A stretch of 64,000 bases of DNA from Octopus vulgaris (Eukaryota), in assembly GCA_951406725.2 (NCBI GenBank), contig OX597819.1, positions 100,874,001 to 100,938,000 on the forward strand, written 5' to 3'. This document shows positions 341 through 46,984 of the stretch, one piece after another. The translations under genes were made by a program, and so were the position numbers. The notes under the pieces were generated by a model. The model was not told the origin of the DNA and made no database searches. It worked only from the letters and a program-made list of their open reading frames with translations. The stretch's first letter is position 1, and each line of letters starts with the position of its first letter.

Positions 341-1284
341 TTGAAAATTATTTGTTCAATATTTGAACATTTTGCTCTAAAATGGAATTGTATTTTTAGT
401 TTAACTGATAAATAATGTTATATTCCTAATTCAAATAATAGGCGATAGTCGGTTTTTGTTCTTGCGCAGGTTCTAATCCTAGCCTATAACTGAATTCATA
501 ATTTATTTTGTTTCTTATATATTTTACCATAGGCTTCTCAGCGTAAAAAAAAGATATATCGTTGGCACAAAGGATTTTAATCAATACTGAACTACACAGT
601 AAAATACTTGATCATAAACATGTTCTTCTACGCGTCAATATCCCACGATGTATCTGAGTTGATCTAGGTTACGGCATTTCGTTATTTTGTACATGTTTTA
701 ATTTTCTTTTCCAGGAGGGAAAAATTCTGCTTGATGGGTAGATGTTTCTTATCAACATTACGATCTAGTTGGAGTTAATTTGCATCTAGAATGTCGTACT
801 AGTTAGCAATCAAGATCACACGTAACATGTTCGAATTCCGTTTACTCTGTGACAAGAGTACTATTTCATTCTATATATTATAATTTACTAATCTTAAAGC
901 TGTGATCATCTAACAGTTGATTATCTATTTTCTGATGTAAGTAACCGATGTTCAAATCTTGGTCTCACCACTGGAAGTATTTTGTAAATATTTTACATAA
1001 CACTATTCGAAGTGTCTAAAAAAGCTATGGAAAAAGGTTATAGTTTTCCCTACAACGTCTTATATGGCAAATCATTCAAATATACCCATATTATAGCTGG
1101 GTTTAGTGTATAATTTTGATTTCGAATTCTTGTTACAGACTGAAGTACTGTTTTGTTTTATTAATTTTTACTGCATCAGATTCTATTGCGTAAAATATTC
1201 AGGTTAATATACCTAATTCAGCTAGTTATTTATACGTTATTATTTTATTGGTTAGCATGGTGCACTCTTCATATATCAGTTTCA

Positions 1285-1490
1285 AATTTAGGCACAAGTG
1301 CAGGAATTACAGGGAAGAGAATAATTTTTTTACATCGACTCCAATGTTCAACTGGTACTTATTTTATCGTCTCCGAAAACATGACAGGCAAAGCTGACTT
1401 CAGCCGAATTTGAATTCATTGCGTCAAAGGAGACGAAATGCTGCTAATTGTTTTGCTCGGCGTGTTAACGATTCTGCTTGCTCGGTACCT
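1285..1490 (-). mobile_element. Degraded SINE, family B (Nin-domain-like)
   Basis: Reverse complement of the 11754 copy: actggtacttattttatcg..aggcaaagctgacttcagccgaatttgaatt..cggcgtgttaacgattctgc. Confidence 0.75.
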
Positions 1491-1899
1491 TACACACTCT
1501 GTTGATATATCATGACTTGTTCGAACTCACGTCATAATATTAAACGCGTGTCGAAATGAATTTACTTCACAAAAATATGCAACCAGTAATGAAAATAAAT
1601 AAACATTCGATAAATCCGGACTCCATGTTTGCATAATTTGGTAAACTGCATCTACCAACATTATGAAGTAACTCCGAGCCTCCAGAAACGGCTGTCGGAT
1701 TTGTAACACCATACCTTCTCCTTTTTGATTTTCTGTGTGTTTGTACTCTGTGTTAGTTTTCTCTGTAAATTTATACTTGAATATTCGCCATCTGAAAATT
1801 TCAGCCTTTTCCTTCTTTCTCGTTACATGTATACAGGTATATATATTTTCTATATCTAACCCAAGTAACTTTATTTGTTTTCTTGCATCTCCAGGCTTC

Positions 1900-2478
1900 C
1901 GCCGCAAAAAACTGCGTGATGCAAACTTCAGGCATCAGTCTGCCGACCGGCGTCAGCCGCTGCAGACGTACTACCACGTGACACTTCTTTGTTTTGCAGC
2001 GCTTCTCCCCTGTTCGTCGACTTTTGCGATAGCTGAAACGAAGGCACAGCGTGCTTCTGTGAAATTCTGTTTTCTGCTGAGGAAAATGGCGGTCGGAACA
2101 ACTGCCATGCTTAAAACAGCTTACAAGGACGCTTGCTTACGGAAGATCAAAAGCAGTCAGGACTGAATGCGTGTCATGAACTGAAAGACCAGCTGGAAGT
2201 TGATATGGACCATTTTTCAAAGGTCATCGCTGATGGCGAAAGTTGGTGCTACGGAACTTGAAGATGTGGAAGGTGAGAATGAAAAAAAAACACGGAGGCG
2301 CTAAAAGGTATCATTTCACAAGAGTACCAGCACTGCTTCGAATAGTAGAAAACGCGTCTAGACCGACGCATTGCTTCAATTGGAGAATACTTTGAAGACG
2401 ACAGTGGTGAAAACATATAAATGTCAGTGAATAAAATAATATTGCGAAATTCCGGTTTCTTTTGGGTATCCCCATGTA
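1900..2478 (+). mobile_element. Internally deleted mariner transposon remnant
   Basis: Fragments QRASVKFCFLLRK..AMLKTAYKD (HTH), LTEDQKQSGLNACHEL..FSKVIADGESWCYG (first catalytic region) and EYQHCFE..RLDRRIASIGEYFEDD (C-terminus). TIR-like end ttccggtttctttttgggtatcccc at about 2450-2475. Confidence 0.85.
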
Positions 2479-3109
2479 CATAATGTCCTTGAGCAATATA
2501 TTTCACAATACGTTGCATTTGTTCAGTTATACTGATTACTAGCCGATTGCTGCTGCTGTCCGCTTTTCTCACTTTATTAGAGTACGATAAATACCGATCT
2601 GTGTCGACATGGTGCTGTCTATTTTAGCTCACTAGAGTACCAAACCAAGCTTAAATAGTTGACTGCCAACAAAATATTGCAGTTTTACCAATTGGAGTGG
2701 ATGCACACATCAATATTATATAGCTGCAACACTCTATGTTAATTCTTATACACACAAGCATACATAGACATACAACTTATCATACACTCATACGCACCTA
2801 TACACACGCGCGCAACCTCTAAAAGCGGACCATATTAAAATGGAATAACGTTAAATAAAATGAGGAATAGGATTCAAGCAAATATAAATTATATCAAATA
2901 GATTATATAAAAAACGGACAAAACGCCCACCTCCATCCAATGGACGGTACTGAGTTGTCAAACATTTAAACCAAATTTTCTCAAAACAACTTGTCCGACC
3001 GTCCCATATGCCTCCTCTTTGAGAGACACTGGTTTAACCTAAATTTGAGACACCAGCAAAAGAAGAAATAAAGATATATTTTTTCTATTCCAAGAAAAAA
3101 CGATTTTAC

Positions 3110-3299
3110 AAATGCACGTTTCCACGGCTTTATCGATCGCCTTCTCACTTGGAATCGATTTTTGTAATTTTTTTCAAGACTTATCCACGCCCTGATACCG
3201 TCGGTATCTACATATCAAATTTGAGCGCAATCGGATGGAGGATGCCAGAGATCCTTGAAGACACACACACAGACAGACAAAAACGGGTTTTATACAGAT
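3110..3299 (-). mobile_element. Helitron-like non-autonomous 5' end fragment
   Basis: Ends caaatttgagcgcaatcggatg..cacacacagacagacaaaaacgggttttatacagat, the same terminal layout as the Helitron at 61097-61731. Confidence 0.45.
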
Positions 3300-4329
3300 G
3301 TTCCAGCTTTATTGATAATATTTAATCCCAGTTTATCACAAACTAGGAGATTTATTATCAAAGATGTTCTTATTCTGATCTTTTTGCATATTACGATCTC
3401 GATTATTCCCTTCTGTGGAATTTGTGACAGAGTTGGCTGGTATGATATTTCTGACATATTCTGCAATTGTGCAGAGACCTCCTCTTTGGTTCGTATCAGT
3501 TAGATTCTGAATTACATCATCTTTCATGCTTTCTATGAATGGCTGTGTTTATTTTGTTTTGCTGCTTTTGGTGTATTTATTTTTGTTCTATATTTCCTTT
3601 TAATGTCTTGTTGCTTAAAGAAACATTATTCAACAATGTCTGTGGGAGGACGAATTGGTGGGAAATGCACATTTGGATTAAACTGTAGCACACATAGAAT
3701 TACGAAGGGGCGAGATAGAGTATCAGAAGGATTGAAGGGTGAGAGTGAATAAGGGTAAACGGGGTGGATAGAAGCAAACGGAACGTCGAGAATTAAAAGG
3801 CAAAACAAAAAGAAAAAAAATTTGAATTGTAGTTGTCTGTTAGTTTGTATTTGATGTACGACCGCCTGTGAATCTTATTGCGCGCGTATAGTCAGCTTTA
3901 GCACTTAGACACAAACATTATCACAGAAAGGCATATAGATATGCTCACACACACATAGACACACAGACATATGTTTTTGCGTGTGTGCGAATGTATGTAT
4001 GTGGGTAGGAGGCTAGATAGGTAGTTAAGTAGGTAGGTAATATATATGTACACAGATGCACACTCATATATACGCGTATTTATACCTGTTGTGTCTGTTA
4101 GATACATTATATATATATATCTTTAAAGTTGATACGTTCAGCGAGAGAATGGAAATAGTTTAAACGTTTAAACAGAAAAGACAAAAGGACTTGGAAACAT
4201 GATAATTGGACGTGGAAAAATAGCATGTGCTAATAGTAGGTGCATGTGGGTGAATAAGCTGATATAGTGGATAACACATGAGTATATGAATACCTACGTT
4301 CATGCAGTGATCTCTGCTTATAAATGATG

Positions 4330-4620
4330 TGACCCACAACTATGCTATCTCACATCTCTCTGACTTATGCGCTACTTTGTCCACTGATCAACAAACTGGC
4401 GAGAAACTTAGTTCCCCAATGCAGGAACCCTTGAGACACTCCTACCTCCACCACACATCACTATTGTTACATCCAACCTCCTCTTCAGCATCACCCTAGT
4501 ACCTATGCTGTATCGTTCCACTCCAGAACAATGGTCCTTTGCAATCTTCTGCTTGCTTATGTATTATCTGCAGCAGTTCACTTCCATCTTTTGAAACGAT
4601 GCATCGACAGTACCAAGTAC
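4330..4620 (+). mobile_element. Possible CR1/L2-type LINE ORF2 3' remnant
   Basis: SFHSRTMVLCNLL..VLSAAVHFHLLKRCID resembles the C-terminal SFFPRT..LWN.LP motif; highly decayed. Confidence 0.3.
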
Positions 4621-4993
4621 AGTAGTCTTGAAGAACTAAATACGCAAGCCAATGATCAAATAAATCTCAAACGTTAGCATACCGCTCTTTCCTTATTTGC
4701 ACGGGAGCCAGTGTTAAATGTATATTATCAAAAATGTAGAGCATGATTCCGAGAATTTTAGCTGCTATTTCTAAAAGGTTGAGCAACCATACAGCAGCTG
4801 CTTCTTTTGGTAGTTCAAGTTATTGTTGTTGTAGTTGCTGAATTTGATGTTGCTGTTGAGCGTGATGTCGGTTGTTTATTCGACAGTGTAAATAACTGCT
4901 TCTGGCGAAAAAAATTCTTCTTTTGATATTGCCTTTGAGACTTCTTACTTATATACATTCAACCATTCCACCATTCCATGAGGCTCCATTTGG

Positions 4994-5123
<130 letters not shown>

Positions 5124-5432
5124 TTTCCTATTTATGTTTGGTGCAGAGACTGCTGCTCCGCCCTTACGTTCTAAGTTGATATGCATCAAATGGAAATTGA
5201 AATTTAGCTTCGGAATAAAGAAGGATAGTGTGGATGTGAGTGTATATCGGTTCGTGTGTCTGGATGTGTGTGTTTGTGAATGCATGTGCATATATGCGTT
5301 TTTGCGTGTGTGTGTGTGGGAGGCGTGCATGTGCTAAGCGAAAACTTATCTGTACATACATAAGCATAATTATGACATGTTTGTATGCATATGTATGCAT
5401 GTGTTTATATATATATGTGTGTGTGTGTATGA

Positions 5433-5463
<31 letters not shown>

Positions 5464-5563
5464 TGACGGGAAGCTTTATGAAAATAGACAAAAGACGAAG
5501 GCAGGTGGGAAACAAACAAACAATTGTATTAGTATGGCGCTCAGGAAATATAAATAAAACAAG

Positions 5564-5601
5564 TCTTTAACGTTTCGAGCCTACGCTCTTCAACAGAAAG
5601 A
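5564..5601 (-). ncRNA. Minimal type I hammerhead ribozyme motif (core CUGUUGA)
   Basis: UCUUU-CUGUUGA-A-GAGC(GUAG)GCUC-GAA-ACGU-U-AAAGA: stem I UCUUU/AAAGA, stem II GAGC/GCUC, palindromic stem III. Confidence 0.7.
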
Positions 5602-5844
5602 TACACAGAGAGAAAAAAAACACAGAAAGAAGGAGAGAAAAAAATGCGTGCAGTAACTAACGAATCAACATGGCGATCTGATTCCGGCCAGAGGTCAAAG
5701 ATCAAACATGAGACGCGAGAGCGAAATAAGGGGAGATAATAGGGTTGATAATAGGGTTGAATGACCAGCTATTAGTGCGTAGGAGAGGTCTGGACGTGTG
5801 TATGTATAGGGTTGGTGTATGTATTAGTATGTACTAGTATGTAT

Positions 5845-5883
<39 letters not shown>

Positions 5884-6444
5884 AGAGAGTATTAGTGCGT
5901 ATGATAGGTCTGGACGTGCGTATGTATGGGGTTGGTGTATGTATTAGTATGTATTAGTATGTATTAGTACGTATTAGTATGTATAAGTGTGTGTGTGTGT
6001 GTATGAGAGAGTATAAGTGCGTATGAGAGGTCTGGACGTGTGTATGTATAGGGTTGGTGTATGTATTAGTATGTATTAGTATGTATTAGTACGTATTAGT
6101 ATGTATTAGTTGGTGTATGTATTAGTATGGCACATCATATATGATGTGATGTGTAAAGTCGTGTGGTGTAGTGTGGAGAGAGGAGAAGAGGGGGAGGGGG
6201 AAGGGAGGAGAGGGGGAGGGGAGGAGGGGGAGAGGGGGAGAGAGAGTAGGGAGAGGAGGAGGGGAGGAAGGAGGAAAGAGGGAGAGGGGGAGAGAGAAGG
6301 GGCGTGAGGGAGCAGAGGGAAGGGGAAGAGGGAAGGAGGGAGGGAGAAAGAGGGAAGAAGGGAAGAGGAGTAGGGCTGAAAGGATGAAGGAATGAAGAAG
6401 TAGGGGTCGGGGGGGAAGGATAGGTGAGGAGGGGGAGAGGGGGG

Positions 6445-6780
6445 TTAGATGAGGAGGGGGGGGGGGTAGTTGAGACCAAATGGCGTATAAGAGCGAAGAG
6501 AGAAGATTAATTCCTGTTCACGGCGCAAACGGGAATCCGGATGGCCTCTGTGTAAGGACAAACCGAACACAGATAGGTGTTGCAAGGTGTGACCGGTGAA
6601 GCGGAAATGGCGTGAGACCGGTGTGTCGTTCGCAAGGTGGATGTCACGAAGGTGTTCCGCGAACCGGTCAGCCAAGCGGCGTCCTGTTTGTCCGATGTAC
6701 AAGGAATGGCAGAGAGAGCAAGAGACGCAATAGATAATATTGCTGGAGGTGCAGGTGAAGGAGTGGATGATGGGATAGGG
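6445..6780 (-). pseudogene. PLE GIY-YIG endonuclease C-terminal fragment
   Basis: [69 protein letters not shown]: IIY/YIG motifs, CxxC, conserved R, H, E and GLN. 5'-truncated at (TA)n. Confidence 0.92.
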
Positions 6781-6879
6781 TCATATACATATATATATAC
6801 GTATATATATATAAATATAAAATATATATATATATATATACGTATATATATATATATATATATATTTACATATATATAC

Positions 6880-6950
<71 letters not shown>

Positions 6951-6953
<3 letters not shown>

Positions 6954-7291
6954 TACGGAGATGTACTTGCATAGCAAGCGACTTGATCTGAGATCGTGTG
7001 CTGGAATGAAAACAATTGCAGCGTGGAAGGTGTTTATAAGCCATTTAAGAAATACGCAAAACCGTTAGATTCACTTTAACATTTAAATTTGATTTGTCAA
7101 AATATTTTCGTCGCTTTGAGACCGCGACCTGTTCACTGACAAAGCTTCGATGCAGCACAAAGCTTTGTCAGTAAACAGGTCGCGATCTCAAAGCGACGAA
7201 AATATTTTGACAAATTAAATTTAAATGTTGAAATGAATCTAACGGTTTTGTGTGTTTCTTAAATGGCTTATAAACACCTTCCACGCTGCAA
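6951..7291. mobile_element. Fold-back pair of PLE-type termini, each with a G3-C8 hammerhead motif
   Basis: Arms of about 130 bp (7016-7146 and 7159-7291) are near-perfect reverse complements. Same family at 24970-25425. Confidence 0.85.
7093..7143 (-). ncRNA. Hammerhead ribozyme motif, G3-C8 core variant
   Basis: UUUGUCA-GUGAACA-G-GUCGC(9 nt)GCGAC-GAA-AAUAUU-U-UGACAAA: 7-bp stem I, 5-bp stem II, palindromic stem III. Confidence 0.7.
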
Positions 7292-7414
7292 GTGTGTCCT
7301 CATGGGGCTAAAAACTACAGTAGTATCCACCCTTAGGGGTTAGCCATATTGAAATGGCAAAAATACGACACGTTGTGTTACCGCTACTGTATATAACTCA
7401 CATTGATATTTATC

Positions 7415-7458
<44 letters not shown>

Positions 7459-8863
7459 CATACATACATACATACATACATACATACATACATACATACA
7501 TACATACCGATATATATAGAGATCAATAGAGAGGGAGAGAGAGAAACAGAGAGATATAGAGATAAATATATACTACAGAGGTAGCCGTATGAGTGAACAA
7601 ATGAAAGAAAGAGATACTCAGCACATTTAGTTTACGTGTATTATTTTAAAAAATAGTATGATTCGGCCCCGTTCGACTCACCGAGTGGAGACATATAGGA
7701 TCATCAGATATGTGTGTGTGTGTGTGTTTGGTATGAATGTCTGCATCGATATCGTTGTTAACCGTACCATTGAAATTGTTCGAATTAAAGTCATTAATAT
7801 CCGTTAAGTAGTCCGTTTCTTCTTTCATATATCCGGCTATATAACCGACATTTTTTTCTCCTTAATTCTTTTCCCGAGCTGCTGCGACTAATTTATTTAT
7901 ATCTATTATTTTACTTTTTCTGTCGGCAGGTTGTTTTTATCTGGCATCAATCCCTCTTTTTTGGTAGGTAAATATAATAAAATTATGTTTTAAAATGGTA
8001 AAAGCTCAGACCCGATGTCTTTACTAATAGGGATAATGTCCAAAGTGTTCCACATGGATTCCATCAAGAAAATTCTGCTAAAGAGAAGTTTTGTCTTTTT
8101 TTTTCTTCTTTTCTCTTCAGCTGTCATGGAAAAAAATTTCTTGGTGTGCAAAAAAGTACACTCGAATGAATAACAACAACAGCAACACCAAAACCATAAA
8201 GCTGGCGACGGCAATGAATATGATGATGACAACGTTGTTAATTAGATCAGGATGATGATGATGAAAATGAGATGATGTTTTATATTGGCACCACACCAGG
8301 AATGAATAATAAGAAAGAACAACCTATGGTATGGAATTTAGTAAATCATTGGTGCATTATTCTATTGACCCCGGAAAGAATGTGGGCCATATTCGAAACC
8401 TGGCGGCGCTTGGACAATAAATATATGTACTAAAATAAGGATAAATACGAATACTATCGCCACAAATATTATTTTAAAATGCTCCGTAAACGAATTAACA
8501 TGAGATGGATAAAGCTTGAAGACAAAGCATATTATGAAGGAAATATAAAAGGAACAGAAGGGATAATGAGTGAAATAATGCACGAATGAGAGGAAGAAAT
8601 AATAAAAAGAAAAGGAAAACGAGAAGGAATGAAAGAGAGTCGGTAGCAATTATAATTTTTCGCCTAACATCTGGATCTAATGGTTTTTAATGTTTATATT
8701 TTTCCTTTTATCTATATATGAGTTATATCGGCATCATTGGGGAAATAAATCTTTTACAGCTCTGTTTAGGCCTATCAGTTTTCTCAATAGAAAGCACGGC
8801 CCTGTTGCTTTTGCCCTCACCTCCCTCAGGTTCTTTCTCTGTATCTTCTTTCTCTCTCTGTCC

Positions 8864-9011
<148 letters not shown>

Positions 9012-9234
9012 CATACACATACATATATGCGTATATACTATATATATATATATATACATATATATATACATGTGTGTGTGCGAGTGCATATGTGTCTACA
9101 TAAATATATGACTATTCAAGTATTATTATTGTATGTATACATATATGCTTATAGACGGGTAGATGTGGATAAATATATATAGAAGATATGCTTGTATTTG
9201 TATGTATTCGTGTGCCTGTGTATCTATCTATTTA

Positions 9235-9269
<35 letters not shown>

Positions 9270-9632
9270 GAATAATTTTCTCACTGATTCTCTCTTTGTC
9301 ATTCGCTCTTTCTCTCTCTCTCCCACTCTCATTGACTCACACTCACATTTTATCTGTCTTTCTCTGCTTCCGCCACACTCTTTATCTCTATTTCTATTTC
9401 CACACTCAAGTGCAGCCATAAACAACACAAATACTTTCCACCATTTTGCATTTGCTTCAAAGTCCCGCCGTCACGTCTCTTGGCTGGGAGCATTTTTAGG
9501 ATTTTTTTGATTTATGTCGGTTTTCGCCTAAACACATACCTTCTGACATAGATATAGTGTTTGCTTACACTCATAAACTGAATCTTAAGCGTATATGCTA
9601 TACATAGTTAAATATTTGTTTGTGCTTATATT

Positions 9633-9679
<47 letters not shown>

Positions 9680-9791
9680 GCACTCAAACACACATATAGA
9701 TAGATAGACAGATATGTAGACATATATATATTTATATATGTAAAATATATGTTGATTGATACAGAGGAGAGATGTATAAATATATATGTAC

Positions 9792-9859
<68 letters not shown>

Positions 9860-10367
9860 AGAGAGAGAGTGGGAACGTACTATGTTTACACATACAAATC
9901 TACATTCTTATACTTGTATATATAAAGAGATGAATATACAAATATATTTAAATCTGCATTTGCATATAACTATGCATAATATACGAATGTATATGTGTGT
10001 GTGTGTATACTTTTTCGCGCGTATGTGTACGAATATAAATCTATAAAAAATGTATTCGTGTTTCCTTATTATATACGCTGTATTTTAGGGACTATTATAT
10101 ACTCAACGTCCTTATATATCGAAAGATACGTATCCAAGTACCTGCCTCTCTCTGCTTTTGTATATATATAAATATGTGTGTGTGAGTGTGCCCGTGCAGG
10201 TGTGTCCGTCCGTCTACATGCATATATATATATATACATACATACATACATACATATATATGTATATGTGTGTATATATACATCTTTATATATATGCATG
10301 TATATATATATGTGTGTGTGTATGTATATATCTATCTATCTATATTTCTATCTATCTGTATGTATGC

Positions 10368-10419
<52 letters not shown>

Positions 10420-11076
10420 GTGTATATGTATATAAATGTTTATGTATGTTTGTATATGTGTGTGTGTGTCTAAATGAATGTAAATACGTCTTACATATTT
10501 ACATTCATGCCTTATAGTATAAACAATCACGTAAACACACTTTCATGTGAACACACGCTACATGCAAACATACTCACACACACACAAATTCATAAACACG
10601 TTAATACATATACGTGCGTATTCTTGTGGGCGGGCGCATGTGTGATGATCAGTACGTGTTATTGTGTTTGTGCTTATATGTACGTGTGTGTAATCACATA
10701 AGCACTGACTACTTTCACATCATGATCAATACATTGAAATCCATAATTACGAATTTTGTATGCACTGACACGAATCGAACCCCGGTGGGTAAGACACCAT
10801 AGCACCATAGAAGCTCATTAATCACAAAGCCCTATTGGCTTTAACATTATCAGACTTCGTAGGATACAATTTAGCAAAATGGACTGATGTAAGAAGTAAC
10901 TAAACCGGCTGAAAATCCGAAAGTATGGACAGTAATTTAAAGAAGAAGAAGAAAAAAAACATGGCCAACCGGATATATTATAGATATGTGCATAAATACA
11001 GTTTGTCACAATCTATACGTGTATATGTATATATTTATATATATATGTATGCATGCACATATATGTAGTTTTTCTT

Positions 11077-11214
<138 letters not shown>

Positions 11215-11753
11215 GATACATGCATACATACATACATACATACATACATACATACATACATACATACATACATACATACACGTACATACATACATGTATA
11301 CACACACACAAATATATAGAGAGAGCGAAATAGATAAATAGATAGTTAGATTGATTGAAAGATAGATATATTCTTTTCTTCTTTTATACATTTCAGCTCT
11401 AAGTCATTGAATGTCAAGAGAACAGGAATCACGTTTTAAAATTCAATAGCTTACAGTGCTTTCTGCTGTAAGGAGCAGTACACCCATAATAGAGTGACTG
11501 TACCATATCCAGTAGCTTATTCGGAGCCATTGCAGAATACATAACATTACAATATGAAAAAAACATGACGATAACCGCTATATGCAAGCGAGAATTGCAT
11601 GTCGTGAGGTCATGTGCCATATCTGCAGTAATTATTTTACCTATCTACGTAGGTGCGAGTTGATGTTATCATTCTCTTGTTCATCTACACACTCTTCTCT
11701 AAAAGATGATTCAAATACAGGAAAAGAGCGATGAACAGGTACTATGGGAGCAA

Positions 11754-11983
11754 GGCGGCGAGCTGGCAGAAACGTTAGCACGCTGGGCGAAATGCGTAGC
11801 CGTATTTCGTCTGTCGTTACGTTGTGAGTTCAAATTCCGCCGAGGTCGACTTTGCCTTTCATCCTTTCGGTTTCGATAAATTAAGTACCAGTTACGCACT
11901 GGGGTCGATGTAATCGACATAATACCTATGTCTGTCCTTGTTTGTCCCCTCTGTGTTTAGCCCCTTGTGGGTAATAAAGAAGT
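11754..11983 (+). mobile_element. Full-length SINE, family B, with 17-bp target-site duplication
   Basis: tRNA-like head (tggcagaaacg, gagttcaaattcc), Nin-like core gaggtcgactttgcctttcatcctttcgg..aagtaccag. TSD aggtactatgggagcaa at 11737-11753 and 11984-12000. Confidence 0.92.
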
Positions 11984-12127
11984 AGGTACTATGGGAGCAA
12001 ACTTTTCAAATAATCAGCAATCCACCTGAATCAAGAAACAAACAATATGGTTATGAATTCAGCCCTATGAAATGTAGGTCACTTACAATTTTTCATCCAT
12101 CAATATATATCTACATGCATATGTAAG

Positions 12128-12790
12128 ATTTAAAAGAGAAAAATACGCACTCTTTACATATTTTAGTATAATTTTTAATATATCGACCGGTTTCGCTATC
12201 GCTATTCATGATATTATGTTTTACTTATTTGAATATGTATTTTCTGAAGAAGAAATTTTGTCCATGTTATGTGTGATGGTATCTACGAGTGAATGACTTC
12301 ACAACTAGAAAAGTAAGGGGAGGTAATTAGTTATCATTATTATTGTTATTGGTGTGAGTAAGGGAGATAACTGTCCGGTTTTCGGCAATGGGAGGGGAAT
12401 ATATATTACAGGCAATAACAGTTCCCGAAAATCTTGTTCATTGAGGGGATTTATGTAGTGATGCAATCGTGAATTGAAATATGTAAAAAAATAAAAGTTG
12501 GTTATGCGTGCATATTAAGACGTGTTCTGTATTTTTCAATGAAAACATTTTATTTAAACGTTCTTGTGGAGAGATTATGTCTTTGGACTGGTAGAAGGGT
12601 AAGACTATGAAATTTGGTTTGATGTTATCTGCACATTTTTCTATATGTTCACTGAGAGGAATTTGCCTGTATTGCGGGAAACGGATTTGCTCTTTATGTA
12701 GATAGGTTCACTTTCTCAAAGTCATACTCGTCTGTCCACACAATAAATAATAAGAATGCTACGTTATATCAGGTTACTACAGGTGATTGA
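12128..12790 (-). mobile_element. PLE 3' remnant: decayed GIY-YIG, 3' UTR and terminal HHR
   Basis: Minus strand from 12741 reads CGQTSMTLRK*TYLHKEQIRFPQYRQIPLSEHIEKCADNIKPNFIVLPFYQ, a GIY-YIG pattern (GQT..LR.R..H..I..P.S.H). HHR at 12180-12214. Confidence 0.8.
12180..12214 (-). ncRNA. Hammerhead ribozyme motif, A3-U8 core variant
   Basis: AUAUC-AUGAAUA-GC(GAUA)GC-GAA-ACCGGU-C-GAUAU: perfect 5-bp stem I, palindromic stem III, GUC cleavage triplet. Confidence 0.7.
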
Positions 12791-13038
12791 ATTCATATGA
12801 GATATCTTATAGGGAAAATTGTAGAGTATTATTGCCTATTGTTTCACTCCGATTACTAAAGTGACGTAGAAAATCTGATGAAAAAAAAATCTGATAAACA
12901 CCCAGTGAGGTTCGAAACTCAAGCACGTTGTTTAGTATCTGCAATCTAATGAAAACTAAATTTGACCTATTTTGTTTGACCAATATGAAGCTAAACACGT
13001 AAATATATGTATGTATGTATGCATGTATGTATGCGTGC

Positions 13039-13078
<40 letters not shown>

Positions 13079-15051
13079 ATATACATGTATATTCTTGTGC
13101 TTGCTTGCATAATACATACACATACGCGCATGCTCGCATGCATGCACGCACTCATATACTCATAATATCTCTAGAATTACCGAAGTTTTTTGTGCCATTG
13201 CATGCAGATATAAACTGGTTTCGTTTTGGAAAATTTTAACTCCACATCCATAGACATAATATATTGACTACCGCTATCAGGAACCGATGAGACGATGGGG
13301 TACAGATGCTTGGTAACCGGGGTTTATGCAAGGCTGAATGGAAAATGAACCTGTTTTGGCGATGATTATTTTGCAACAGTACATATTTTGTTTGGCAGGA
13401 AAAGACAAACACACGAGTACGCAGTAATATACATATGTAAAGAAAGAGAGAGAGAGAGAGAGAGCGAGAAAGAAAGCGAGTGAAGAAGGATGAGAGAAAT
13501 AATTCACTTTTTTAATATTCCTAAAGAACACTCACACAGGTAAACAAATAGAGAGAGAGCAAGTGAGCGAGCGAGCAAGAGAAAGAGGGAGATAGAGATG
13601 GAGTGAGAGCGAGAGTGAGACAGAGAAAGAGAAATAGACAGACTGAGAGGGATAGAGGTGGTTTATTGTGTCCTTACTGTCTCTCTCCGACTTTTCTTCT
13701 CACAGTAGCAAAATTCGATTTCTATTTTGTAAAACACGTTCATAAATCCATTGTGAGAAATGTTTTCTTAACGTGCTTATAAATGAACAATTGTACCTTG
13801 ACAAAGCTTTGCAGACGCCAGTAAATGTATTTTTGTTGCTTGCATATAAGAAGTGCAAGTCCCACTGGGTTATTATCAAGAGATGTGGTTTCTTTCACTT
13901 ATGAAGCGAAATGACGGGGAAACATGTGTCTATATGAAGACTTCATTTCAAGCCCAGCTAGATGCATGTATAATCTACATGATACTGTTTTTCCAAGACA
14001 ATAATTACAGCGAACGTCTTCCAATATTTGAGTATACACAAAGTATGCTTGGTGCGTTTTTAACTAACATAGAGTGTGCTTTTAAGTAATATATACTGTT
14101 GTTTTATTTCCTTGATTTATTTTGCGCAAAAGATTTTCCTGCTTCTTTTATTTAATATTGTTTAGTAAGCTTTTATCTTTTCGTTTTAACAATATTTCTC
14201 TCCCATGTGATTTATATCTGCACCAGCAAAACATGTTCTAGATGTTGTGAGAAATAAGCGTAGGATTATCAGAAGACCGAGTTGTTACTGTATTAAAATA
14301 AATGCAAAATTCAGCGTCATTTCCACTTCTACAATTCATTCGAAAATGTTTGATGAAGAGAGGATATAAATGAAGACATTTGTACAAGAACCATGCAGAG
14401 TCATTCAGCTCAATGTGTATATTTGTTTAGATGTAAGTGCGTGTGTGGCTGGAGTGCAAATGTGTTCGTGTTTGTGTGTGTTTGAGTGTTTGGCTGTGTG
14501 AAGTTATATGTAACAGATGTGAAGTTATATGTAATTTTGGAATACGTATCATGACGGCAATGAATATTGCGATTCGATCAACAGAGTTTGATAAAATAAA
14601 TTCAAAACAGATGAAAATTAAGCCAGATAGTCTTAATAGAATCCCCTGTAAGGCGTTGCTACAATATAACTGACGTCCAGTGACTGCAATTAGAAATGAA
14701 AGTAGATAGTTATATATTTCTGAGAAAAAATATAAAGGAGAAAAATATAACTAGACAAACAATATTTATATATGTCTGCGATGACGTCAGAATGTCTGCG
14801 TTGCAATCACACACACGTACACACGTATATAAATAGTCGGTTATATTTATGAGACTGTGATATGTGTGTTAAAGTTTATGGAATTACATATAAACTATCA
14901 ACTGATATCTGTAATCTCTCATAAATATCGCATATTATATACATTCCGACAGGAGCCGTATCACTGTATCACTGATGTAAAGTCAAAGCATAAAGTATCA
15001 ATATGAAAAGAAAACATACGTACAAATATATATACACTTACTAAACCAATG

Positions 15052-15104
<53 letters not shown>

Positions 15105-15207
15105 GTAAGCACACACACGTATGTACGCATACACATATATATGAATGAAAGTAATGGAGTAAGAGATCCGAATAGATATTTTCAAATATGTATTTATTGA
15201 AAAACTG

Positions 15208-15271
<64 letters not shown>

Positions 15272-15869
15272 TTGTATGTATGTATGTATATGTATGCATG
15301 TAAGAATGCATATATATGTTTGTATTTCTATGTATTTATCTGTGTTCTGTGTGCGAATAAATATATACGAACATACATCTATACGTGCACATACCTACAT
15401 ACTCACATTCATACTTACAGAGACACACTTGTATTTTTGAAACTGGAGATTTTTCTCTACTCGAGTTTCATGCAACTGCCATCTTTAGGCGAGAAATGTA
15501 TTTTGTTGGTATATTTACATTCGTTTAAATGAACGATATATCGAGCTATGTTTGACCATTAGTTTGTTGGGTTGTTATTTTTCTGCCCCTTTCTTAATGC
15601 CTTCATTTTGGTTTGATGCGTGGTATTGCGCTTCCGTTTCTCCAATTTGTTAATGACGAAACTATTTGTAATTCTGATTCTTTTATTGCTATTGCTTTTT
15701 AGGAATTCCTGATCGCCTCCATATATGCATATACTCTTTAAATTCCTAAAATTGTTTCAACTTTAAAGCTGCTGCCGTTTGGTAGCACCACCGTTATATA
15801 TCTTTAATTATTTCAATTGATAATTTCAAAATGAAGTATCTCTCACCCTCATGAAAGATGTTCATTCTA

Positions 15870-17065
15870 TTATATTAAATCGTCAAGTATGAAATTTGTA
15901 ATAAAGTATATGGCGAACTTTGACAGGTGCTCATTTTGTACCATTGTCATATTTTGACAATCTTTATTTTTTGTTAGAAAGCTGACACATCTATTTCGTT
16001 ATTCTAACTCATTCTGCGCTTTATAGATTATTTATATATCATTTTATTTTTGCTATTTTTGTTTAAAGATGGATAAGTCGGAAATTCGTACAATTTTGAA
16101 ATATGATTTCTTTCTTGGAAAGACAGCATCACAGACAGCTCGAAATATTAATGGAGTAGTTCATTCTAATGTTATTACAAAGCAGACCGTATGGAATTGA
16201 TTTTTAAAATTTCGTTCTAGTAACTTTCACATCTTAAATGAGCAATGCGGTCGTCCAGAAACAAAGGTGGATAATGACAAACTGAAAGCCAGATCCATCT
16301 CAAAGTGCCCGTTATTTAACGTTGTTTTGTGGTGTTAGCAAGCAAACAATATTTGCTCACCTTGTTCAAATCGGTAAAGTGAAAAATTTGAATAACTGGG
16401 TTCTACATGAACTCAATGAAAATCAGAAACAGCAACGTTTGTATGCCTGCATTATGCTACTTTCTCGTCACAAAAAGGAATTATTTTTGAATCGAATTAT
16501 AACATGTGATGAGAAATGGTTCCAATTCAACAACCTTAAATGTTGTGTACAATGGTTGGACAAACAAGCCACCAAAACATGGTCCGAAAAGCAAAATTCC
16601 TCAAAAGAAGTTGATGGTGGTCTGGCGCAGGTGTGATACATTATGATTTCATTAAACCTGGATCATCAATCACGGCCGAAGTATACTGCAGATAACTGGA
16701 CCAAGTGATGCAGAAACTTACAAAAAAACAGCTTAGATTATTCAACAGGTCCACCCCTATTTTATTGCAAGACAACGCCAGAACACACGTCGCAAACGTG
16801 ACATTGGCGAAACTACAGGAGTTGGAGTTGGAAGTTCCCCATCATCCACCATACTCATCTGATCCTGCCTCCACTGACTACCACTTCTAGAATTTGGATA
16901 ACTTTTTAATAGGAAAAAATATAATTCCTACCATACTGTAAAACAGGCCTTCCAAGATTTTATTGACTCTAGATTACCAGGCTTTTACAGTTCCAAGCTG
17001 GAGAAGCTACCACTGAAATAGCAAAAGTGTATGGACAATATGGGTGCATATTTTTGATACATTTA
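15870..17065 (+). mobile_element. Mariner (DD34D-type) transposon with near-full-length transposase pseudogene (ATG at 16069)
   Basis: MDKSEIRTILKYDF..TARNIN (HTH), WVLHEL, IITCDEKW, LLQDNAR, HPPYSSDPASTDYHF; several stops and frameshifts; TIRs not clearly recoverable. Confidence 0.92.
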
Positions 17066-19317: not shown

Positions 19318-19471
19318 ATATTATAGAATCGTTAGCATGCCGGGCGAAATGCTTAGCTGTATTTTGTCTGCCGCTGCGTTCTGCGTTCAAATTCTTCGGA
19401 GACTTTGCCTTTCATCCTTTCGAGGTCAATGAAATAAGTACCAGTTACGCACTGGGGTCGATATAATCGAC

Positions 19472-19719: not shown

Positions 19720-19905
19720 GGCAGTGGGGTAAAAGAATCGTTAGCACGCCGGACGAAATACTTAGCGGTATTTCGTCTGTCGAATTTCGCTAAGGTCGAC
19801 TTTGCTTTTCATTCTCTCGAGGTGGATAAAGTGAATACCAGTCAAGTACTGGGGTCGATGTGATCGACTTATCCCCTCCCCACAAATTTCAATAGAAAGA
19901 ATTAA
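18880..19905 (+). mobile_element. Cluster of about five SINE-B copies or fragments separated by (TTA)n
   Basis: Repeated gaatcgttagcacgccgg heads and gaggtcgac..tgcctttcatcc cores at about 18880, 19180, 19325, 19530 and 19718. Confidence 0.85.
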
Positions 19906-24800: not shown

Positions 24801-24969
24801 AAAAAGAAAAAAGAAAAAAAGGAAGAAAAAAAGGAATGTTAAAAAATATCGAGTATGCGTACATAAAGTTTTAAACAGTTGGTTTTCGTTGATTATATAT
24901 TCAGGAATACATTATGTAAATTACATGGAAATTTCCATAAAATTCATAGGGTGTAATTTATTTTTACCA

Positions 24970-25425
24970 TTTAATTTTCATTTGTGATCAAATATTTTCG
25001 TCGCTTTGAAACCGCGACTTGTTCACTGACAAAGCATGGCGCTGTATCTGAGAGAATATCAGTTAGTGCATGATATATATGTGTTTATGTATGTACGTGT
25101 GCATGTATGTACGAATGTATATATGCGTACATGCACACATACATGTATACATGCATACATACATACAAACATATATACATACATAACAACATAATATCAT
25201 GAACTAACTGTAACTCTCAGATGCAGCGCAAAGTTTTGTCAGTGAACAGGTCGCGGTTTCAAAGAGACAAAAATATCTTGACACAAAAGAAAATTAGATG
25301 TTTGAAGTGAAACTAACGGATTTGTGTGTTGTTGAAAGGCTTACAAATATCTTCCATGCTGCAATTGTTTTTGTTCCAGCACACGATCTCGGATTACGTA
25401 ACGTGCTAGGCAAGTACATATCTAT
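24970..25425. mobile_element. Second inverted pair of G3-C8 HHR PLE-type termini, with microsatellite spacer
   Basis: cgtcgctttgaaaccgcgacttgttcactgacaaa versus tttgtcagtgaacaggtcgcggtttcaaagagac. The right arm continues as the reverse complement of 6960-7090. Confidence 0.85.
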
Positions 25426-25564
25426 AATTTATTTGTAAGATCCCTTAATATTATGATTTAATAACTTTATATGTATATAATTTTAAAAAGGCTTTCCCAT
25501 TGTGAGCGGCAGTTGAAATGCTAGAACTGCATAACGAATTATACTCATTCAAGATGGCACGCTC

Positions 25565-46705: not shown

Positions 46706-46769
46706 GATAGTAGAGATTGATCAGGACAGGTTGTATACAAATGATTGTTTCATATATCCAGGTGAACCA

Positions 46770-46984
46770 AGGCGTCGAGCTGGCCGAAACGTTAGCACAG
46801 CGGGCGAAATGCTTAGCGGTATTTCGTCTGTCTTTACGTTCTGAATTCAAATTCCACCGAGGTCGACTTTGCCTTTCATCCTTTCGGGGCCGATAAATTA
46901 AGTAGCAGTTGAGTACTGGGGTCGATCTAATCGACTGGCCCCCTCCCTCCAAATTTCAGCCCTTGTGCCTAGAGTAGAAAAGAT
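46770..46984 (+). mobile_element. Full-length SINE-B with imperfect 17-bp TSD
   Basis: TSD tatatccaggtgaacca (46753-46769) and tatatccagatgagcca (46985-47001). Confidence 0.9.

Follow-up and report, generated by a model that had tools for sequence, protein, structure and literature searches.

The 64,000-nt stretch of Octopus vulgaris DNA analyzed here (hereafter referred to as the window) contains on its minus strand, at positions 12180..12214, a 35-nt type I hammerhead ribozyme motif whose core carries an A3-U8 pair. The reading that we consider probable, by a modest measure, is that this motif is a hammerhead located in the 3′ tail of a Penelope-like retrotransposon, that A3-U8 characterizes the family of that element or a large subfamily of it, and that active tandem copies would cut their RNA as a dimer, slowly and possibly with the assistance of a protein, the copy present in the window being a fossil.

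The motif was defined from its sequence and numbering and from descriptor searches accompanied by shuffles. An earlier note, made from the sequence alone, had placed it at exactly these coordinates without stating the strand, and had described a perfect stem I, the A3-U8 pair, a 2-bp stem II, the palindrome ACCGGU and a GUC triplet, each of which was recovered letter by letter. Reading 5′ to 3′ along the minus strand, AUAUC (12210..12214) and GAUAU (12180..12184) constitute the two strands of stem I, supported by sequence and fold, and form five Watson-Crick pairs (12214-12210 with 12184-12180). The first strand is followed by the core box A3-U4-G5-A6-A7-U8-A9 (12203..12209, with A3 at 12209, U8 at 12204 and A9 at 12203), by stem II (12195..12202, position 12202 pairing with 12195), which consists of G10.1-C11.1 and C10.2-G11.2 closed by a GAUA loop, and by the core residues G12, A13 and A14 on the 3′ side of stem II (12194-12192). 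The palindrome (A15.1-CCGG-U16.1; 12191-12186) is predicted to form an intermolecular helix III and is followed by C17 of the GUC triplet at 12185, with the predicted cut lying between 12185 and 12184. A weak and AU-rich outer extension of stem I is further predicted within 12155..12239 of the minus strand, where 12239-12232 pair with 12162-12155 in a 101-nt fold. U4, G5, A6, N7 and A9, G12, A13 and A14, the A15.1-U16.1 pair and H17 are all present, and stem II opens with G10.1-C11.1, as in the type I hammerheads of Penelope-like elements. In contrast, the literal C3-G8 of the CUGANGA box is absent; A3 and U8 are found instead, which leaves positions 3 and 8 Watson-Crick complementary. There is no extra letter between A9 and 10.1 and helix II is shorter than 3 bp, whereas an extra letter and a longer helix II are usual, if not universal, in the hammerheads of Penelope-like elements (PLEs). 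ACCGGU is a short palindromic helix III of the type that permits dimer formation.

A loose type I descriptor, accepting any Watson-Crick 3-8 pair and applied to both strands of the 64-kb window, matched two sites, namely the 12180-12214 motif and one at 7136. The same descriptor yielded a mean of 0.39 matches in 150 shuffled windows (0.067 with a palindromic helix III), and none of these 150 windows contained a match of the quality of the motif, i.e. with a palindrome of at least 6 nt and a stem I of at least 5 bp. Of 100,000 shuffles of the 371-nt tail of the element, 126 contained a match of any kind, 38 one with a Watson-Crick 3-8 pair and a single shuffle one, as good as the motif, that also had a stem I of at least 5 bp. 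The strict descriptors were drawn up after the motif had been seen, and the figures obtained with the loose descriptor are the fair ones. Hammerheads with the canonical C3-G8 core did not appear among the descriptor matches in the 64 kb, where the only two good ones both have purine-3 cores.

That the motif is nothing but a chance look-alike in the AT-rich tail of a retroelement is, in our estimation, most improbable. In its favor are the accidental matches that loose descriptors give at times (the 0.39 per shuffled window reported above, and five weak matches with 3-bp stems I in the descriptor scan of the shuffled tails), a folding energy no better than that of shuffles, and the silence of Rfam, whose hammerhead model returned no match at E ≤ 10 over 12050-12350; nor was a hammerhead for this motif found among the best 150 of the 387 matches listed in the Rfam scan of the whole window. 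Set against this are the rarity of loose matches with a Watson-Crick 3-8 pair in the shuffled tails, a site and a strand that are those published for PLEs (PMC4209133; this and the other articles cited by PMC number are represented here by excerpts), and the finding by descriptor scans of no further hammerhead in the tail. A chance match had also been judged unlikely in the earlier note, from the position of the motif. The miRNA matches of the Rfam scan were dismissed as artefacts driven by microsatellites, in which the AT-rich window (GC 26-42%) is dense. Sequence-pattern scans for the motif outside the window returned three unrelated metagenome matches, shared over the pattern plus at most 17 nt only, and no viral match, and scans for related loci found no relative among 58 genome-contig stretches, none among 24 viral-contig stretches and one weak viral match elsewhere.

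The hammerhead lies in the 3′ untranslated tail (12132..12501, minus strand; part of the pseudo-LTR), delineated by contig cover and loose ends, of a 5′-truncated element copy of ~0.6 kb (12132..12738, minus strand) marked by steps in contig cover near 12161 and at 12738. The rest of the copy (12502..12738, minus strand) represents the C-terminal half of a Penelope-like frame for a GIY-YIG endonuclease, recognized by its homology to reverse transcriptase (RT)-endonuclease proteins; it is broken by an in-frame stop at 12710-12708 and by a frameshift near 12550, and ends with a stop at 12504-12502. The hammerhead stands 287 nt behind this end stop, on the same minus strand and in the same repeat family, which agrees with the distance of about 300 nt downstream of a decayed endonuclease given in the earlier note. 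When read through its in-frame stop, the remnant retrieved 89 proteins at E ≤ 0.001 (best E 1.3e-14) that are Penelope-like RT-endonucleases, confirming the GIY-YIG assignment made from the letters alone; a word-index protein search gave no match, and the remnant by itself had no match in Pfam. Eleven relatives were scanned with Pfam, seven of which matched GIY-YIG, four RVT_1 (two of these below the curated cut-off) and three both. The remnant aligns to the extreme C-terminus of RT-endonuclease proteins of ~750 residues, sharing 46% identity over 50 residues with P0018. A CX4CX2C linker is found in nine of the 13 printed protein relatives, the linker and RT having been cut away in the window copy, and other copies run past the truncation at 12738 into a CxxC...YI motif, as read by eye on a loose end shared by 19 contigs. 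From the homology of the remnant and the CxxC...YI motif of these other copies, a GIY-YIG endonuclease with a CCHH motif ends the open reading frame (ORF) of this type of element.

Judging from these relatives, the host is a C-terminal EN+ Penelope-like element, represented in the window by a 5′-truncated and broken copy. The linker of its relatives points, by motif rather than by tree, to the Neptune/Nematis clade: a CX2-5CxxC linker preceding the endonuclease is a mark of Neptune and Nematis, and the C-terminal EN+ elements of these clades resemble the relatives of the host element in having a C-terminal GIY-YIG domain and a pair of cysteines placed between its GIY and YIG parts (Craig et al. 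2021, PMC8557442). The A3-U8 motif had no match in the supplement of that article. The 3′ end of the element lies at or beyond 12132, the loose ends before 12161 matching the window at 25 of 30 letters by eye. Neither in 9000-12130 and 12739-16000 nor in the rest of the window was a tandem or inverted partner copy found. A look-alike of 35 nt (25169-25203; E 0.001-0.007), which lies immediately upstream of the second hammerhead family described below and consists partly of simple repeat, was rejected as an AT-rich match due to chance.

The 5′ junction of the element, at 12738, is spanned by a single contig in run X6 (organism C, piece 32) and, it appears, by another in X4 (organism B, row 12741, located 52 letters from the end of the contig); the 3′ junction, near 12132, is spanned by one in X1 (organism A, piece 1). 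Since the junctions are bridged in X6, apparently in X4, and in X1, the insertion looks older than the split of the bridging organism labels. No target-site duplication was recognized at the element junctions. Beside the element, at 11737-12000, a dispersed repeat of ~230 nt is enclosed by two direct repeats of 17 nt that match perfectly (11737-11753 and 11984-12000); its relatives lie at 46768-46935 (89%), 19325-19471, 19734-19871 and 1330-1484. It has the appearance of a SINE accompanied by a target-site duplication and may resemble an octopus SINE.

The prevalence of the element was assessed on contigs from four public runs, with four organism labels, aligned to 12010-12800 at 80% likeness (1930 contigs in X1, 2109 in X4, 1362 in X6 and 764 in X15). 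Cover rose at the first of the two steps mentioned above and fell at the second, difference rows rested on one contig each in the flanks and on tens of contigs inside the element, and depth in the element relative to the flanks was in the range of about 850-9,600, a ratio that signals a large repeat family and is not a copy number; depth likewise gives no basis for ranking the parts of the element against one another. These alignments show a single dispersed, multi-copy, 5′-truncated repeat family spanning the endonuclease remnant, the tail and the hammerhead, and the Penelope-like context that had been proposed for the motif is borne out by the protein relatives of the remnant and by the presence of motif and remnant in this one family in the contigs of the four runs.

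Whether A3-U8 is shared by the family was approached through the differences between these contigs and the window. The best 40 of 203 difference rows were listed, apparently ranked by top share (a rule deduced from the table itself) with a floor of 73.9%, such that letters with a share under about 74% are invisible. Shares were recomputed for the 24 of the 40 rows that rest on many contigs; the other 16 rest on few contigs and, by eye, have shares of 96-100% in one or more runs. Private changes of the window copy were seen at shares of 78-100%, and include the pairs 12279/12283, 12352/12357 and 12600/12607, whose members are 4-7 nt apart, and a decayed CpG at 12336. The earlier note had considered that its reading would fall if other copies lacked the A3/U8 pair. 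On the present, indirect evidence it did not fall: no row at 12209 (A3) or 12204 (U8) figures among the best 40 of 203. One contig piece, from X1 (depth 35.9), carries G3 with U8 together with a mismatch in stem I. The sole row inside the motif among the best 40 of 203 is 12198, which changes the GAUA loop to GAAA, the other letter accounting for 99.8% of the depth in X15 and for 9-29% in X1, X4 and X6. Loop II is the position at which we would expect a hammerhead to vary most easily. In X15, 65 contigs aligned across the 12198 mismatch, which lay as far as 38 letters from their ends, and no change is listed 6 or 11 nt away, where U8 and A3 are located. Compensatory stem changes between copies were not seen among the best 40 of 203 rows. 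X15 (organism E) has a dominant subfamily of its own, in which the other letters at 12198, 12219 and 12359 reach 93-99.8% as opposed to 7-29% in X1, X4 and X6, and whose GAAA loop II is a GNRA tetraloop.

These observations bear on a different origin of the core, in which A3-U8 would have drifted from another pair, whether from G3-C8 in two transitions or by way of G3·U8, and the active master element would have had a different core. The drift would have taken place either in this copy or in a dead subfamily that was amplified passively. We regard such drift as unlikely. The contig with G3 and U8 is in keeping with it, as are the fact that G3 would fall within a CpG and the invisibility of letters below about 74%. 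The in-frame stop at 12710-12708, at or next to a conserved endonuclease arginine and incompatible with an active element, is likewise not displayed among the best 40 of 203 rows in any of the four runs, either because many copies share it (through CpG decay or as a non-autonomous subfamily) or because clipping of the alignments hides it, and four of the five differences of the 12556 loose-end consensus also fall outside the best 40 of 203. As the stop and the loose-end differences are also missing from the listed rows, the missing rows at 12209 and 12204 are not proof of conservation. On the other side, with ~28 listed private changes in 578 nt, the probability that both given sites had been privately and independently changed is about 0.002; the control change pairs and the decayed CpG were detected; and the X15 copies, with their nearly fixed change in loop II, show nothing listed at the two positions. 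Finally, an origin of A3 by CpG decay is weakened by the near absence of CpG depletion (ratio of observed to expected 0.84 in the window and 1.02 in the element). From these comparisons A3-U8 very likely prevails in a large subfamily at the least, and is probably a trait of the family or of a subfamily.

A second, unrelated family of hammerheads was found in the window by pattern matches, in the form of two head-to-head inverted pairs (7012-7295 and 24962-25428; position 3 at 7136 and 25026 on the minus strand and at 7171 and 25242 on the plus strand). Members of this family have the core GUGAACA with a G3-C8 pair, an extra letter after A9, a 5-bp stem II, the palindrome AAUAUU and, in the best copy, a stem I of 7 bp. 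G3-C8 is kept in all four copies, one of which is intact and three of which are changed (at G5, at G12 and by an insertion in stem I, respectively). The G3-C8 pattern matched four times in the window and never in 100 shuffles. The Rfam hammerhead model found neither of the two copies in 7000-7300, and no parent ORF of the family was found. The first inverted pair is flanked by (TA)n on both sides. From their layout, a link of these hammerheads to Penelope-like elements may be inferred.

Folding of the 12180-12214 motif was examined for one and for two copies. The monomer folds at −2.6 kcal/mol with an empty centroid, and since 152 of 200 shuffles are as stable, folding energy gives no support to the motif. 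A hairpin across ACCGGU in one copy was evaluated at +3.5 versus −1.6 kcal/mol; at this cost in energy, a single copy cannot close helix III. Two ACCGGU palindromes, in contrast, pair at −8.3 kcal/mol in a helix III of 6 bp. The unconstrained minimum-energy fold of the homodimer is a double hammerhead in three of four contexts (35, 56 and 101 nt), the exception being the 170-nt context, in which stem I is lost. The dimer energies are ordinary: of 500 shuffles in each context, 388 were as good for 35 nt and 267 for 56 nt. The predicted double-hammerhead fold thus shows compatibility with a dimer, not selection for one.

In the mechanism that we propose, active elements arranged in tandem or partial tandem, an organization established for these elements (PMC4209133, PMC11167929), would yield one transcript bearing two hammerheads. 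A single copy would fail to close helix III, and two copies would join their palindromes into the 6-bp helix. A3 would pair with U8 in place of C3-G8 and hold the ribose of nucleotide 8, which is the proposed general acid of the hammerhead, with G12 acting as the general base (review, PMC6155905). The cut, after GUC at 12185/12184 and about 50 nt from the 3′ end of the element, would trim the precursor RNA to unit length, in line with the role in processing tandem precursor RNA that has been proposed for PLE hammerheads (PMC4209133, PMC6765202). Cleavage would probably proceed at a low rate and may depend on the protein of the element itself, much as the hammerhead of the anole Poseidon element PAc is cleaved with protein assistance (Frangieh et al. 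2024, PMC11167929). Having one hammerhead, the window copy would depend on another RNA in trans for any activity.

An alternative to this cleavage model, which we deem doubtful but less so than drift, is that the motif is the family-wide descendant of a hammerhead that no longer cuts usefully, having A3-U8, a stem II of two pairs and no sign of a contact between loops, and that it is kept as a fold or signal bound by the element protein near the start of reverse transcription. Results with PAc are in agreement with a non-cutting role, in that cleavage is dispensable for insertion in vitro, catalytic mutants still inserting, and no RNA-seq reads begin or end at the cut site (PMC11167929). So are the low in vitro activity general among the minimal hammerheads of PLEs, which cut poorly even as dimers (PMC4209133), and the absence of a stable monomer fold. 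Yet the motif has kept a Watson-Crick 3-8 pair along with G5, G12, A13, A14, A15.1-U16.1 and a permitted H17, a plain binding site would have no need of a paired 3-8 swap, and the second family of the window keeps another paired swap, G3-C8, in all its copies.

The closest known counterparts of the motif are the minimal type I hammerheads of PLEs (PMC4209133), which share with it the type I layout, a stem I of 4-5 bp, G10.1-C11.1, a palindromic helix III, a site behind an RT-GIY-YIG frame and a dimer model, and whose elements, like that of the window, are mostly single 5′-truncated copies. Among the 56 motifs of Fig. S3 of that study, none of them from a cephalopod, we counted by eye 53 with C3, three with U3 (two U3-A8 and one U3·G8) and none with A3 or G3. 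Helix II is of at least 3 bp in these motifs, and 54 of the 56 have an extra letter after A9, whereas the A3-U8 motif has a 2-bp stem II and no extra letter. Small hammerhead variants described by Lünse, Weinberg and Breaker are similarly linked to Penelope-like elements and cleave as dimers (review, PMC6765202). PAc is another instance of a hammerhead in a Penelope-like element, but differs from the present one in its natural C3-G8 core, its position overlapping the start of the ORF and its membership in the Penelope/Poseidon clade, the relatives here carrying the Neptune/Nematis CX4CX2C linker; an engineered G3-C8 swap partly rescues cleavage of its hammerhead (PMC11167929). Perreault et al. 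(2011; PMC3088659) name, in the part excerpted, U3-A8 only as natural covariation of the 3-8 pair, and call two-pair stems II frequent. The 2-bp stem II, which the earlier note had presented as part of an extremely compact motif, has precedents in natural hammerheads.

Hammerheads in PLE tails (since 2014), U3-A8 and 2-bp stems II are already known. A natural A3-U8 was not found in the full-text literature searched, a scope that does not extend to Lünse 2017, Arkhipova 2017 and the Perreault alignments. Within that literature, the A3-U8 core is new among natural variants, and the gain is incremental. Przybilski and Hammann reportedly found in 2007 that, in certain scaffolds, every Watson-Crick combination at positions 3 and 8 is able to sustain cleavage.

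A wider claim can be put forward tentatively, as a possibility worth entertaining rather than the expected outcome: A3-U8 may be the selected and working core of a high-copy animal retroelement family, borne by a 35-nt hammerhead with a 2-bp stem II, and, together with the G3-C8 family, the mobile elements of this genome would use both purine-3 pairs, completing the set of all four Watson-Crick pairs in nature. If this is true, searches based on CUGANGA and on Rfam would leave a large class of ribozymes undetected, and a hammerhead could be present in some elements reported as lacking one; a blind spot of Rfam is already apparent, in that neither the A3-U8 motif nor the two G3-C8 copies tested were detected. 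It is the 3-8 pair that puts the general acid of the hammerhead in place, and its natural covariation in print is U3-A8 in the literature searched. A family fixed on A3-U8 beside one fixed on G3-C8 would amount to a natural experiment that asks if every Watson-Crick pair suffices in the weakest hammerhead scaffold. Two such families would also be an indirect sign that Penelope-like elements select for cleavage, which was dispensable in the one reconstituted system.
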